DNA of 56,927 nucleotides from positions 1-56,927 of the forward strand of contig DHPU01000066.1 in the NCBI GenBank assembly GCA_002407935.1. The letters are read 5' to 3'. Numbering within the stretch: position 1 is the first letter of the stretch; each line of letters begins with the position of its first letter. Source of the DNA: Peptococcaceae bacterium UBA5356 (GTDB taxonomy: Bacteria; Bacillota; Peptococcia; DRI-13; DTU073). Below, piece after piece: positions 50,035-53,852 of this stretch. Under the pieces are notes generated by a model. It searched no databases. It saw nothing but the letters and a program-made list of their open reading frames with translations, and had not been told where the DNA came from. The position numbers and the translations under genes were made by a program.

Positions 50035-50111
50035 TGGTCGGGATGACAGGATTTGAACCTGCGGCCTCTTCGTCCCGAACGAAGCGCGCTACCAAACTGC
50101 GCTACATCCCG
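50035..50111 (-). tRNA. tRNA-Pro (anticodon CGG)
   Basis: The reverse complement reads CGGGATGTAGCGCAGTTTGGTAGCGCGCTTCGTTCGGGACGAAGAGGCCGCAGGTTCAAATCCTGTCATCCCGACCA. Anticodon stem CTTCG/CGAAG with loop TTCGGGA. Confidence 0.92.
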
Positions 50112-50229
50112 ATTTAAGCAAAAAACAAAATTAAGATAAAATTTATTACTACACTTTAATATTATATGAACTTTAGCCGGATAAGTCAAAGGGAAAATTT
50201 TAAGCGCAGTTTGTCTGGAAAAATTCGTA
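50088..50229. repeat. 142-nt direct repeat, left copy (5' 24 nt of tRNA-Pro plus 118 nt upstream)
   Basis: 140/142 identical to 53711-53852. Mismatches at 50143 and 50163. Confidence 0.97.
50161..50189 (-). promoter_or_regulatory. Consensus promoter of tRNA-Pro
   Basis: On the minus strand: TTGACT (50189-50184), 17 nt, TATAAT (50166-50161). Confidence 0.7.
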
Positions 50230-50650
50230 GAACAATTCCCACAGTCGCTCAGCCAGGCTTTTCTCGATAAGATCATCTTTGATCGCTGCAAACAACCCAT
50301 CTAATGATTCATAAGCGTTCACCCGGTGGAAATATGATAGAAGAATATAGAGAAGATAACAACTTGTTACATGAGTAATCTGAGCGTCAAAATCCCTCGA
50401 TTGACAAGTCCCTAATTTTAGGTACTGTTTGGTTTCCTTGAAAAATACTTCTATGGTCCAACGGACGCTATAAATCTCTATCATACTCAAGAATCCAAGG
50501 GATGTATCCGTTGAGAGAAACAGCCTCCGCTTTTTTTGATAGGGAAAACGGCAATAAAACAATTTAACTTTTCCTATTTCTTCGTAATCGACGATGACTT
50601 CATAATAAAAGAGCTTTTTAATGCGTATAAAGAGGTGATTAAATGCAAAT
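50200..50650 (-). pseudogene. C-terminal fragment of an IS4-family DDE transposase
   Basis: Y-x2-R-x3-E-x6-K region IYSVRWTIEVFFKETKQYLKL. The open frame extends upstream only to about 50650, with no N-terminal or DD part. Its last 10 codons run into the 142-nt repeat. Confidence 0.75.
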
Positions 50651-50819
50651 AGGTGAATTTATATTAAACGATGTTGAAATACAAGAGTTAAAGAAAGAGT
50701 TTAAAATATTATTTAAAAAACCTGCACCGCCATATAATTATGATGAATTTGACGGGATTGAGGATTATAAAAAGAAAATAAAGATAATGATTGATTCAGG
50801 TAAGACACCTACTAAATAG
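50643..50819 (+). CDS. 58-aa hypothetical protein (below the ORF-track cutoff)
   Basis: My translation is MQIGEFILNDVEIQELKKEFKILFKKPAPPYNYDEFDGIEDYKKKIKIMIDSGKTPTK. RBS AAAGAGGTGA. Shares PYN and a C-terminal KTPTK with the next ORF. Confidence 0.5.
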   Translation: MQIGEFILNDVEIQELKKEFKILFKKPAPPYNYDEFDGIEDYKKKIKIMIDSGKTPTK

Positions 50820-51020
50820 TGAGTGTTTTTATTACTAGAGATAAAATGTATTTTTGATGAAACAAGATAGAGGGCATAGGGTTTTGTCCAATTGAAATTT
50901 ATTTTAATAAAAATCATTTGTTAAATTAGATGGTTATAAACCTAAATGTTATATAATAGATCCAGATACGTTAAAAAAGAAGGATTTAGCATTATATAAC
51001 TTTATTGAGGAGATGGTTAA

Positions 51021-51242
51021 ATGAACAAAGAACACAAAAAATTATTGTTAAAAACATCAAAGTTACTAGAGTTTGAAAAAATAATTGTCTTTAATAATAT
51101 CCCCTACAATAATTGGAGAAACGACAAAGAAGTATTTGACCATTACAGTAAAATGTTAGAAAACGCTACATCTCCATACAATCATACTGACCCTAGAGAA
51201 GCTTTTATAAGTAAAACACCTACTAAAGGGAGTTCAACTTAG
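51021..51242 (+). CDS. 73-aa hypothetical protein, apparent paralog of the 58-aa ORF
   Basis: RBS GAGGAG. The F..I..F..PYN...D.Y.K...KTPTK pattern is shared with 50643-50819. Followed by a terminator. Confidence 0.5.
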   Translation: MNKEHKKLLLKTSKLLEFEKIIVFNNIPYNNWRNDKEVFDHYSKMLENATSPYNHTDPREAFISKTPTKGSST

Positions 51243-51296
51243 GGATTTACGAAAACAAGTAAATTTTGACCGACTCTTTTCAAGCGGAGGCTCGAA

Positions 51297-51342
51297 AGAA
51301 AAGACTGCACCGAAGGATAAAACCTTTAGTGCAGTCTTTTCT
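51297..51342 (+). terminator. Intrinsic terminator
   Basis: GAAAAGACTGCAC..GTGCAGTCTTTTC followed by TTC. Confidence 0.7.
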
Positions 51343-51461
51343 TCATCGAAAACATAAACGCTGATACCCTATGATGACCAAAACGGCGGGTTCTTGTGGG
51401 GTCTAATTCATTTTTGGAGTTCGTTTGGTGTTTTAGGGGTGTTTGTGTATAGCTGCCCATT

Positions 51462-51739
51462 TTGAAAATCGATAATACCAAGCTTATCGCTGATTTTATC
51501 GAAAAGGTACGTCGCTCCGCAATAGAGATGCTTTGCTTGCAGAAATGGTACCGGTTGATACTTTGGACGTTAGTTCAATTGAGCAGGAAGCCGACACTCC
51601 TAAGCAAAGCGAAAGTGGCGGTAGTTCACTTAATTATGATAATGGGATAAGATATGAGTATTGTACTAATATAGATGCCATTTATCAAGCATTATTCACC
51701 GTTAGTATTTCTGAAGTTGCAGCCACTATAGAAGAATAG
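51462..51739 (+). pseudogene. Gene remnant in two overlapping frames (probable frameshift), function unknown
   Basis: ORFs 51462-51650 and 51533-51739 overlap in different frames. Both would need TTG starts and neither has an RBS. The joined reading ..VRRSAIEML/LAEMVPVDTLD.. is continuous. Confidence 0.35.
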
Positions 51740-51746
51740 AAGGCTA

Positions 51747-51775
51747 AGAAAAGACCTCTCTATGGAGTCTTTTCT
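51747..51775 (+). terminator. Hairpin terminator
   Basis: AGAAAAGACCTC-TCTATG-GAGTCTTTTCT (one bulge). Confidence 0.6.
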
Positions 51776-51820
51776 TATTAAGAATCATATATCATCAAAT
51801 TGGCAATAATATATCGTGGT

Positions 51821-51849
51821 TTGCATATATTCTATTGAGGTGGTATAAT
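51821..51849 (+). promoter_or_regulatory. Near-consensus promoter of the toxin-antitoxin operon
   Basis: TTGCAT (51821-51826), 17 nt, extended -10 TGgTATAAT (51841-51849). Confidence 0.7.
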
Positions 51850-51906
51850 ATGGACAAGAATAAAAAAAAAAAACTCGATGTGCAAGTTCAAAAGGGGGTA
51901 AAAAAT

Positions 51907-52074
51907 ATGGATACAATAATAAAAAGACCCTGTACTATATTGAAATCTATTGAAGATAGTTTTAAACAAATTAAAGAAGTAGAGAATAACAAAAAGCAAT
52001 TTAAATCTCTAAAAGAATCTAGGGCATTATGGAAACAATGGGCAAAGGAAGCTGATAATGAGTCAGACAGATGA
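51907..52074 (+). CDS. Putative antitoxin (55 aa)
   Basis: ATG 51907 lies 8 nt after AAGGGGG and downstream of the predicted transcription start. Overlaps the toxin start by 17 nt. No recognisable DNA-binding fold. Confidence 0.55.
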   Translation: MDTIIKRPCTILKSIEDSFKQIKEVENNKKQFKSLKESRALWKQWAKEADNESDR

Positions 52075-52438
52075 TTTTAATATTTACGAAATTATCCCTA
52101 CCGATAGATTTAACAATGATGTAAAGTATTATATTAAGAAAAAGAAATTTACACGTCTTGAAAATGATATTGATGACATTCTTTGTTCTTTAGAAAAAGG
52201 GGATTTTCAAGGAGAAAAAATAGAAAGTTTAAAATTTCCTAAAGAAAGAGATGTTTATAAAGTAAGAGCAAAGAATTCTAATGCCGATGCGGGTTTATCT
52301 AACGGTTATAGATTGATATATTATGTACAGGTTGATAATAATATTGTATATTTGATTACTATTTATTATAAAAAGGATGATAATAAAATTCCTACAAATA
52401 ATGAAATAGTAGAAATGATTAATAAGTATTGTAATTAA
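52058..52438 (+). CDS. RelE/ParE-superfamily toxin (HigB/Gp49-like subgroup)
   Basis: 126 aa. Pattern VYKVRAKNSNADAGLSNGYRLIYYV..IVYLITIYYKKDDNKIPTNNEI matches the G(K)SGGYR(V)IYY...(F)KK...P..EI core of RelE-like toxins. Confidence 0.7.
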   Translation: MSQTDDFNIYEIIPTDRFNNDVKYYIKKKKFTRLENDIDDILCSLEKGDFQGEKIESLKFPKERDVYKVRAKNSNADAGLSNGYRLIYYVQVDNNIVYLITIYYKKDDNKIPTNNEIVEMINKYCN

Positions 52439-52536
52439 CTATTAATTGACTGACAATATTACTTTATTCAGTATATATTATTTACCGTAGGGCAGTGGTT
52501 GATTAATTAAGTGAAAAAGCACAGTGGCGATAAAAA

Positions 52537-52560
52537 ACCTCTCTTGCAGGGGTCTTTTTT
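52537..52560 (+). terminator. Weak terminator after the toxin gene
   Basis: ACCTCT-CTTGC-AGGGGT stem followed by CTTTTTT. Confidence 0.5.
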
Positions 52561-52716
52561 AATTAATCAATAAAGGGTGACTTGGCATCCTTAAATTGAG
52601 ATAGTACATATAAGACTTATTATTATAAGCTTTATTTACACTCAGTAAGGTAATAGAAATTCTGCGAACCACAAGTGAACATAAAAAGCCCTGGAGGTTT
52701 CGCACCTATTGAAACT

Positions 52717-52772
52717 GCTATCACAAGTTCCGATAGCACAACTTATATACGTATAAGTTGCAAGAGTAGTAT
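52717..52772 (+). promoter_or_regulatory. Hairpin plus 9-bp inverted repeat upstream of the recombinase gene, related to the opuA promoter motif
   Basis: GCTATC-N9-GATAGC (52717-52737). CAACTTATA-TACG-TATAAGTTG (52739-52760). GAGTAGTAT (52764-52772). Confidence 0.55.
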
Positions 52773-52834
52773 ATGAATATAAAGACAATTAAGATAATAC
52801 ACTACCAAAAATTAATCAAAAAGGCGGTGAGATT

Positions 52835-53619
52835 ATGTTAGACTTAAAGGGTAAAAAAGCAGTTTTTCTTTTACGTGTCTCTACTGAAAAACAGACAACA
52901 AAAAACGATAATATTTCAGATCAAAGAAAATTAGTAAACGAATTTATTGAAAAAGAAGAAATGATTTTAATTAGAGAATTTGTTGAAGGTGGAGTATCTG
53001 GTTTTAAAGTAAAAGTAATAGATAGAGACGCATTAACTACAATAAAAAGAATGGCAGATAATAAAGAATTTGATGTGCTTGTAGTTTATAAGTCAGACAG
53101 AATAGGCAGAACTACAGATGAGTCTCCTATGGTAATTAGATATTTAAATGAAAATGGGATAAGAGTATTTACTACAAGTGGACAAGAATTAAAAACCGAA
53201 ACACTGATGAATGAATTAATCACATATCTTGAATTTTGGAGAAATAAAGGTGAAAGTGTAAAAATATCAGAAAGAGCTACGGATTATAAAAAAATAGGTG
53301 TGCTTAATAAACTAATTAACAAAAAGAAAGAGAATCAAAAACAATTAGAATCAAAACAAAAGCAAATAATTATACTTAATCATTAATAAAAAAAGATGTG
53401 GATGAATTATTAATCTATATGAATTCTATTGATGAGGAAATATTTCAGAAAAAAATAGCTTTAAATGAATATGATTTATTAGAAAGCGGAATCGGCACTT
53501 GGGAAGAGAGGTATAAAACTGCCAATATTTTAGAAAAAAAAGCATTGTTAAATCAAATAATTGATAGAGTTACTTTTTTAGTAAAGATGCAGTTAGTGTT
53601 GATTATAAAATTACTTTAG
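52835..53619 (+). pseudogene. Large serine recombinase, internally deleted and split into two ORFs
   Basis: 52835-53386 has the resolvase catalytic domain (FLLRVSTEKQ, SGF, VVYKSDRIGR) and then jumps to a coiled-coil-like tail. 53398-53619 resembles the C-terminal end (LLNQIIDRVTF). The recombinase and zinc-ribbon domains are missing. Confidence 0.7.
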
Positions 53620-53710
53620 AGATTTTTAAAAAGAATAGTGAGGATAAAAGATGCTCAAATATAATTAAGGGGTGTAGCGATATTTTTGGTAGTGAAATGT
53701 CACAACTTAG

Positions 53711-53852
53711 GCTACCAAACTGCGCTACATCCCGATTTAAGCAAAAAACAAAATTAAGATAAAATATATTACTACACTTTAATATGATATGAACTTTAGC
53801 CGGATAAGTCAAAGGGAAAATTTTAAGCGCAGTTTGTCTGGAAAAATTCGTA
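53711..53852. repeat. 142-nt direct repeat, right copy (orphan tRNA-Pro 5' fragment plus promoter copy)
   Basis: 140/142 identical to 50088-50229. The -10 here reads TATCAT instead of TATAAT. Confidence 0.97.

Follow-up and report, generated by a model that had tools for sequence, protein, structure and literature searches.

The 56,927-nucleotide stretch of DNA analysed here (contig DHPU01000066.1 of Peptococcaceae bacterium UBA5356, referred to in full as the window) contains an AT-rich island that is inserted at a host tRNA-Pro(CGG) gene and bounded by a pair of 142 bp direct repeats. The island is probably the decayed right-hand stump of a temperate phage, consisting of an integrase gene (int) and an attR attachment (att) site, and derived from a phage whose serine integrase splits host tRNA-Pro(CGG). 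Four things are seen in the sequence itself, namely that the island is inserted, that its integrase is gutted, in what register the att sites lie and that relatives have a tRNA borne by the phage, and they are described before the history that they suggest.

An insertion at tRNA-Pro(CGG)

The tRNA gene and the two repeat copies are arranged as follows:

50035–50111, minus strand: host tRNA-Pro(CGG), intact (ARAGORN; Rfam tRNA, 69.3 bits)
50088–50229: left repeat copy, comprising tRNA nucleotides 1–24 and a 118 nt promoter region; alleles T,T
53711–53852: right repeat copy, the predicted B′ arm of attR, with an orphaned host promoter; alleles A,G

One relative (L088; flank protein 83% identical) lacks the island. 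In L088 a 97-aa gene, a minus-strand tRNA-Pro(cgg), about 145 nt and a 182-aa gene follow one another, and window positions 49600–50229 and 53853–54500 are colinear with this arrangement, including the promoter region with its TATAAT box, once 50230–53852 is removed; the island is therefore an insertion. An earlier sequence-only reading of the window had described an inserted, decayed, accessory island at tRNA-Pro(CGG) and had proposed a comparison of this kind as a check, and L088, which joins the two flanks with a single copy of the repeat, bears it out. That the interior is richer in AT than its surroundings is likewise upheld, with a GC content of 25–31% over most of 50400–53800, apart from a patch of 35–41% at ~51000–51800, compared with 44–55% in the left flank and 38–47% in the right.

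Recomputation also returns the same repeats that had been reported by eye: 50088–50229 and 53711–53852 are direct repeats identical at 140 of 142 positions, with mismatches at 50143/53766 (T/A) and 50163/53786 (T/G), and each copy holds tRNA nucleotides 1–24 and 118 nt upstream of the gene. A repeat search of the 56.9 kb window finds these two copies only, and the unit is thus not a dispersed repeat. Nucleotides 1–24 of the tRNA (50088–50111) lie inside the left repeat; nucleotides 25–77 (50035–50087) are unique, and a terminator-like hairpin (50008–50024) lies directly downstream of the gene. The best promoter match of the region, TTGACT-17-TATAAT on the minus strand at 50189–50161 (11 of 12 matches), is in the left copy. 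The right copy has a −10 box of TATCAT (53784–53789), owing to the 50163/53786 mismatch, and the single homologous copy of L088 has TATAAT, the same as the left copy. At its right edge, 50229/50230, the left copy adjoins a piece from the interior of an IS4 transposase gene (IS, insertion sequence), because of which we read the joint as illegitimate and not as an IS terminus; since the left copy stops at such a joint, the 142 bp repeat would not be an att duplication.

A gutted large serine integrase

The right end of the island is occupied by the remains of an integrase gene that reads towards the right repeat:

52835–53386, plus strand: large serine integrase remnant (Resolvase PF00239, E 6.3e-19, residues 10–150; phrog_95 integrase, E 1.7e-25)
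53380–53710, plus strand: frameshifted integrase C-terminal remnants and putative P arm of attP (tblastx to L105 6348–6614)

This is a pseudogene of the large serine recombinase family, and the description of a gutted serine recombinase was apt. The catalytic domain (amino acids 1–158, with the motif RVSTEKQ) is retained, and an in-frame deletion of ~243 aa removes the Recombinase (PF07508) and zinc-ribbon (PF13408) domains, both of which are found in all full-length relatives; the remnant is predicted to be incapable of DNA binding of the large serine integrase type. Further C-terminal pieces are present in two other frames, after a deletion of ~67 nt and frameshifts. The window copy is 91% identical to L105 over amino acids 1–163, 81% to L102, 78% to L106 and 69–70% to L091. 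A conserved motif, GGTAGTGAAATGT, is located at 53688–53700 and is followed by CACAACTTAG, and both motif and register are common to L091, L105, L106, L101 and L102. The remnant of the reading frame continues up to the right repeat and into it, and the earlier placement of the recombinase 3′ end some 90 nt short of the repeat has to be given up.

The stretch GGGGTGTAGCGATATTTTTGGTAG (53661–53684, plus strand) resembles tRNA-Pro nucleotides 1–23 and is positioned head-to-head with the tRNA fragment of the repeat at a distance of 18 nt; it overlaps in part with an integrase-coding motif that the family conserves. It was considered as one half of a phage tRNA and rejected, as comparison across the family places it in the coding region for the integrase C-terminus, GTAG...GGTAGTGAA being conserved in L101, L102 and L106.

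Attachment sites and the predicted crossover

Six loci were compared, and from their alignment three are assigned as attP (L091, L105 and L106), one as attL (L102) and two as attR (L101 and the window). All six have GGTnGTGAAnnnn near the end of int, and in the three phage forms it is followed by a 22 nt spacer and then by [ACT]TACAAAA[AC][AG]C[AT]ACC. The spacers, with their predicted central dinucleotides, are:

L091, attP, sense orientation: spacer ATACAGATGGT AG CCCTTATGA
L105, attP: spacer CTCAGTTTGGT AG CGTAAACTG; 13 nt exact match, CAGTTTGGTAGCG, to sense tRNA nucleotides 13–25
L106, attP: spacer AACCAAGCGCG CT ATTCAATGG; 13 nt exact match, ACCAAGCGCGCTA, to antisense tRNA nucleotides 34–22
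Window, attR: spacer CACAACTTAGG CT ACCAAACTG, then CGCTACATCCCG; host sequence starts at CT
L101, attR, independent host: spacer TACCTAATGTT CT ACCATCTGC, then GCTACACCCCG
L102, attL, host tRNA 3′ part on the left: spacer GACCAAGCGCG CT ACCAAGTGG, then ATACAAAAC
53712–53713 in the right repeat copy, and 50089–50090 (plus strand) in the restored attB: predicted crossover CT, from comparison of the att registers

The window and L101 both run from the P arm through CT into antisense tRNA nucleotides 21–1 (in the right repeat copy, CT at 53712–53713, then the antisense host tRNA, then the orphaned promoter), and L102 runs from the antisense 3′ part of the tRNA through CT into the P′ arm. The host-derived segment GCTACCAA occupies spacer positions 11–18 in the window, next to the P arm, and in L102, next to the P′ arm. 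Taken with the identity block of L106, which ends in CTA, this common segment confines the exchange to spacer positions 12–14; the imperfect dyad of L091, TGTATACA ... TGAATACA, has its midpoint between positions 12 and 13, and the two together indicate a central dinucleotide AG (CT on the other strand) that corresponds to tRNA A22–G23. We therefore infer that the exact crossover dinucleotide is tRNA A22–G23, at the border of D-loop and D-stem. The edge of the repeat (53711 and 50088 in the two copies) starts 1 nt before the predicted CT.

The cores fall into two orientation classes, AG and CT. The asymmetric central dinucleotide alone sets the orientation of integration by serine integrases, and the two classes are as expected if it sets polarity here. 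The attP site is contained in the final ~25 codons of int, and the phage tRNA-Pro gene is found ~100 nt further downstream. Resemblance of the P and P′ arms to the tRNA is limited to ~13–15 nt. Neither junction rebuilds a tRNA. The attL of L102 joins tRNA nucleotides ~17–77 to unrelated sequence, and the attR sites of the window and L101 join tRNA nucleotides 1–23 to integrase coding sequence, giving no functional tRNA; in L101 a full-length integrase reads into antisense tRNA-Pro nucleotides 1–23, beyond which lie host genes.

The position of attP also bears on the protein that is encoded. In the phage forms a conserved C-terminal integrase tail, YK(T/K)(Q/L)P(Q/K)...(F/V)TR, is encoded by the P′ arm (L091 11624–11728, L105 6633–6734, L106 6606–6698), and the integrated forms (L101, L102 and the window, 53583–53757 in frame 0) end in unrelated tails encoded by the host.

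Phage-borne tRNA-Pro in relatives of the integrase

A complete tRNA-Pro(cgg) gene is present beside attP in L091, L105 and L106–L108, and also in L102. In L091 (IMG/VR UViG_3300025534_000028), which encodes a 575-aa integrase, it lies 33 nt after the int stop codon on the same strand, with lysis genes on the other strand beyond it. In L105 and in L106–L108 the integrase gene is likewise followed by a complete same-strand tRNA-Pro(cgg) in a phage-like context (thymidylate synthase, NT5C, int, tRNA-Pro, amidase). L106–L108 (P0085) belong to a contig family represented on ~90 contigs and carry genes for ThyA, NT5C, the integrase, tRNA-Pro, an amidase and a Cas12f1-like TnpB; their NCBI label is that of a 'Petrimonas sp.' metagenome-assembled genome, the gene content is phage-like, and the label is probably a binning artefact.

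In L102 a minus-strand fragment of the host tRNA-Pro (nucleotides ~17–77) is joined to ~100 nt of phage-type sequence, which continues into a complete phage-type tRNA-Pro on the plus strand, an rve remnant and a full-length integrase gene. The tRNA-Pro and int are thus at opposite ends of a 3.1 kb element. This mini-element, at 1–3450, consists of a P′ arm, the phage tRNA-Pro, the rve-like remnant and the full-length serine integrase; a further partial tRNA 3′ fragment is found at ~17–60 on the minus strand.

A different arrangement is seen in L084–L087 (flank protein 80% identical), in which the tRNA-Pro(cgg) at the syntenic locus is inverted (in L085, 7100–7221, syntenic with window 50035–50229). 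Its promoter is identical at 37 of 42 positions to that of the phage tRNA of L105 and does not resemble the host promoter seen in the window and in L088, and a Bact_hydrolase gene (PF20603) adjoins it. These loci are probably the reciprocal relic, in which a domesticated phage tRNA would have been kept and the host tRNA lost. That the sole tRNA-Pro(cgg) of the locus in L084–L087 has a phage-type promoter is an indirect hint that viable lysogens may need the phage tRNA.

No phage tRNA-Pro was found in the island of the window by ARAGORN or Rfam. Scans of viral and metagenome sequences with the integrase or the alignment returned almost nothing besides L091, and a strict search for the attP DNA pattern returned L091 and one chance match in a giant-virus bin only.

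A proposed history of the locus

The prophage would have belonged to a small family of phages whose large serine integrase recombines attP with the D-arm of host tRNA-Pro(CGG). With few bases shared between the two sites, integration would split the host tRNA and not rebuild it, and the phage tRNA-Pro(CGG), transcribed from its own promoter, would presumably compensate by substituting for the split gene. In the window the prophage would have entered with int towards the 5′ half of the tRNA, generating the attR at 53688–53735. Loss of the left part, attL and the phage tRNA with it, would have followed, and the host tRNA would be whole again because its 5′ 24 nt and 118 nt promoter are present a second time, beside its 3′ part. 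The left edge of the repeat would then be the integrase crossover and its right edge, at the end of the left copy, a non-specific breakpoint.

After simple integration, the 3′ part of the tRNA would be followed in turn by P′, the phage tRNA, the remainder of the phage, int and P, with the 5′ part of the tRNA and its promoter last. In the window the 3′ part is joined directly to a 5′ part with promoter, so that the gene is intact; after these come the IS4 fragment, int and P, and then the 5′ part and promoter once more. This departs from the product of simple integration, from which it follows that the left copy would stem from a second event with an illegitimate right end. There are three candidate routes. 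The segment that extends from within a prophage-borne IS to a point 118 nt upstream of the tRNA could have been duplicated in tandem, and the integrase could then have excised the DNA between attL and the proximal attR. Alternatively, aberrant excision of the transducing type could have produced a circle containing int, attR and the 142 bp, which then inserted by homology into a non-lysogen. Finally, homology-facilitated illegitimate recombination with DNA of a non-lysogen could have taken place. Each of these routes gives exactly the product in the window. The second resembles the formation of lambda dgal-type transducing genomes and the third homology-facilitated illegitimate recombination as already described, in which a segment of host DNA is likewise duplicated on either side of prophage DNA and one end is site-specific and the other illegitimate; the analogy is one of mechanism only, and these two routes are not distinguishable on present evidence from tandem duplication in situ followed by excision.

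Public assemblies show some variation at the two mismatched positions. The window is identical to the JGI metagenome contig Ga0134854_1000278 (L081), and ENA ERZ724040 (L082) is identical to it over 19.7 kb save at 50143 and 50163, where its left copy bears the bases of the right copy, making the repeats identical at 142 of 142 positions and placing TATCAT before the intact tRNA. This difference could be due to gene conversion or to a choice by the assembler. More generally, the allele pattern is a hint only: it is compatible with conversion of one copy by the other or with an imported wild-type allele, and it does not choose between the routes.

Other explanations and points of difficulty

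A classical tRNA-linked genomic island, with the 142 bp repeats as attL and attR and with a tRNA 5′ end and promoter already present in the incoming element, would account for an AT-rich interior flanked by repeats with a recombinase gene beside one of them, and the left edge of the repeat does coincide with the predicted crossover. We nonetheless consider it improbable. Serine integrases need and create an overlap of 2 bp only, attP sites of this family match the tRNA over ~15 nt at most and contain nothing of the promoter region, the left copy runs straight into the internal IS4 transposase fragment with no element end, and the repeat is host DNA, homologous to the single copy of L088. The repeats of tRNA-linked islands, moreover, represent the segment of identity between attP and attB, normally the 3′ part of the tRNA, and here they consist of the 5′ 24 nt and a promoter segment that is missing from the attP sites of the integrase family. 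Ordinary attL/attR identity blocks were accordingly rejected as an account of the repeats: only the left edge coincides with the crossover, and ~2–15 nt are shared between the family and the tRNA. A still-mobile mini-element, moved by recombination between the repeats or by a helper integrase and held in place by a toxin-antitoxin pair, is a shade less credible still. Repeats that are 99–100% identical and 3.6 kb apart can recombine, the toxin-antitoxin-like pair looks intact, and L102 is itself a 3.1 kb mini-element around a full-length integrase; the integrase of the window, however, lacks its DNA-binding domains, only an attR-type site is present, with attL and attP absent, and neither a circle nor an empty-site contig was found among six contigs with island genes.

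An assembly artefact, in which an empty chromosomal site and a separate circle of ~3.6 kb sharing the 142 bp were threaded together by the assembler, seems very improbable indeed, even though all of the sources are metagenome assemblies, the perfectly identical repeats of L082 are unresolvable by k-mers of up to 127, and one Logan contig ends within the tRNA. Five contigs of at least 50 kb have the same arrangement, and the assemblies that they come from, JGI and ENA among them, include two or more that are independent. In the window and L081 the mismatches divide the repeat into identical blocks of 55, 19 and 66 nt, and ordinary k-mers therefore join the T,T copy at one end to the tRNA 3′ part and at the other to the IS fragment, and place the A,G copy between int and the right flank. 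No replication gene was found in the island interior. All six contigs with the chorismate synthase gene, and all six with the island toxin gene, show the island or break at it.

The origin of the island as a prophage stump has its own difficulties. The att assignments come from sequence comparison at six loci, no intact prophage with clean attL and attR was recovered, and the attR of L102 is degenerate, with ~11 nt including the core missing. The closest relative of the integrase, L105, has a core opposite in orientation to that of the window. No tRNA-Pro was found near the integrase in L103 and L104 (Acetivibrio cellulolyticus, integrase at most 48% identical) or in the truncated copy of L093, and the target is therefore not universal in the wider clade. 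For the event behind the left repeat copy there are the three candidate routes, none of them singled out. The tRNA-Pro(CGG) is known at this locus, and the host may hold another. An island-free genome of the same strain was not found among contigs with the neighbouring chorismate synthase or the island toxin. A search of genome contigs with AroB found, among the matches listed, relatives of at most 48% identity, without recovering a close genome, and no DNA match to the island interior was found in the phage collection.

Remaining contents of the island and its flanks

The other features of the island, and the host gene that follows it, are:

50230–50562, minus strand: internal fragment of an IS4-family (ISBf8-like) transposase gene (DDE_Tnp_1, E 5.5e-7)
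50643–50819, plus strand: 58-aa open reading frame (ORF) matching a phage protein family (phrog_8816, E 1.8e-6)
51021–51242, plus strand: 73-aa ORF, family match not found
51348–51433, minus strand: site-specific DNA methyltransferase-like fragment, 86 nt (blastn, 84% to Enterococcus lactis plasmid methyltransferase genes)
51850–52074, plus strand: candidate antitoxin, 74 aa, by position only; 17 nt overlap with the toxin start
52058–52438, plus strand: candidate RelE/ParE/HigB-superfamily toxin, 126 aa, apparently intact (phrog_5869, E 1.8e-17)
53900–54454, plus strand: host gene of 184 aa, conserved (66 homologues, found in genomes of Peptococcaceae type); in the syntenic L088 it comes straight after the tRNA promoter region

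The IS4-type transposase fragment had been recognized correctly by the sequence-only reading. It corresponds to about amino acids 297–410 of an ISBf8-like transposase of ~450 aa and is truncated at both ends: in tblastn comparisons the matching transposases extend 40–52 aa past the fragment and ~296 aa before it. What remains is some 110 internal residues, not a complete element, and a repeat search found no inverted repeats at the fragment edges. Two small ORFs had been called paralogous, which is not sustained, relatedness of the 58-aa and 73-aa products being undetectable (BLASTP E 0.93). A frameshifted remnant had also been proposed; the ORFs concerned are without a family match, and the part that survives is the 86 nt methyltransferase-like piece. 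This piece lies in the GC-richer patch at ~51240–51800, together with ORFs without assignment (51462–51739) and, at the edge of the patch, a 21 nt inverted repeat (51296–51343; 90% complementary, 6 nt loop). The Rfam scan found tRNA-Pro(CGG) only, and its microRNA-model matches at 51296–51343 reflect a plain hairpin with a score due to chance, which may be the terminator of a lost gene.

The pair of genes that had been described as RelE-like is plausible in view of the match to phrog_5869, a family without an assigned function, and of a gene layout that fits a type II toxin-antitoxin system; the family name itself is less secure, with a ParE_toxin match (E 0.0045, 18 bits) below the Pfam cut-off of 23 bits and weak matches to HigB-2 structures in the PDB (E~0.2). 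The candidate antitoxin gene is called in public assemblies, and profile searches found no family match for it. The toxin protein occurs in public assemblies in this same island only. We regard 51850–52438 as probably an intact toxin-antitoxin pair. No PADLOC matches to defence systems and no useful NCBIfam matches were obtained in the island. The suggestion that this was a likely site of an undescribed function is thus not supported: the island is ordinary debris in which every identifiable piece beyond the probable toxin-antitoxin pair is a fragment, and what surrounds that pair is probably non-mobile.

The flanking genes of the window, which include shikimate pathway genes, SASP and DnaE, and the homologues of the right-flank protein assign the host to spore-forming Firmicutes of the Peptococcaceae type. 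The named relative is Thermanaerosceptrum fracticalcis, at 77% identity.

Relation to known systems

Large serine integrases described to date mostly split, to our knowledge, protein-coding genes or intergenic sites. The present family resembles the large serine phage integrases of phiC31, Bxb1, TP901-1, A118 and SPbeta (SprA) in having Resolvase, Recombinase and zinc-ribbon domains in its full-length members, and in its short pseudo-symmetric att sites; unlike phiC31-type integrases, the window copy is non-functional. The island also shares features with grounded prophage remnants and tRNA-linked islands, being AT-rich and adjacent to a tRNA, with IS debris, a pseudogenised integrase and a probable toxin-antitoxin module. 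It differs from them in that the repeat covers the 5′ end of the tRNA and its promoter, not the 3′ end, and in that this repeat is not the att identity block.

The nearest parallel is tRNA-dependent lysogeny, reported for Fionnbharth and other actinobacteriophages, in which attB overlaps a host tRNA gene and the core shared by the two sites has insufficient length to restore that gene (Guerrero-Bustamante & Hatfull 2024, PMC10865867); the cases described involve tyrosine integrases and a core of ~10 bp (PMC10865867). In the family described here the attR sites of the window and L101 and the attL of L102 similarly join phage arms to halves of tRNA-Pro(CGG), the core is short, no tRNA is rebuilt, and the phage forms carry their own tRNA-Pro(CGG). 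With no tRNA at either junction and a tRNA of its own in every phage form, the family matches the definition of tRNA-dependent lysogeny. It differs from the tyrosine integrase cases in the use of a large serine integrase, in the predicted 2 bp crossover, in its target in the D-arm of tRNA-Pro(CGG), in the location of attP inside the 3′ end of int and in its hosts, which are Firmicutes-type anaerobes. Our literature search found no description of tRNA-dependent lysogeny by a serine integrase, nor of a large serine integrase that targets a tRNA and supplies a replacement, with the proviso that search coverage was limited and absence is unproven.

We tentatively put forward a broader proposal, which we hold as a whole to be doubtful: that the integrase family represents an undescribed tRNA-dependent lysogeny by serine integrases, combined with an attP tail swap and with sister phages that have flipped cores. 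Under this proposal, integration would exchange the conserved phage C-terminal tail (YK.QPQ....TR) for one encoded by the host, and the exchange might work as a switch, built into the gene, that sets integrase activity or stability differently in phage and in prophage. Cores flipped about the dyad (AG and CT) would lead the same tRNA to be entered in opposite orientations.

The window itself is of little significance, since the prophage end that it holds is dead and at most one toxin-antitoxin pair may still be live, and what modest novelty there is lies not in the island but in the integrase family that it exposes. It also carries a caution, that direct repeats beside a tRNA, even long ones, need not be att sites. 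The serine integrases to which the relic points form a rare family, and their natural target in the D-arm of tRNA-Pro(CGG) is defined and highly conserved; the family could supply new integrases with predictable attB sites. With the presumably compensating tRNA that these phages carry, tRNA-dependent lysogeny would reach beyond tyrosine integrases and actinobacteriophages to Firmicutes-type phages and their serine integrases. Within the host clade, one locus appears to have had two outcomes of prophage decay, with the tRNA restored in the window and the host tRNA replaced by the phage tRNA in L084–L087, and a host may thus either regain its own tRNA or adopt the phage copy.

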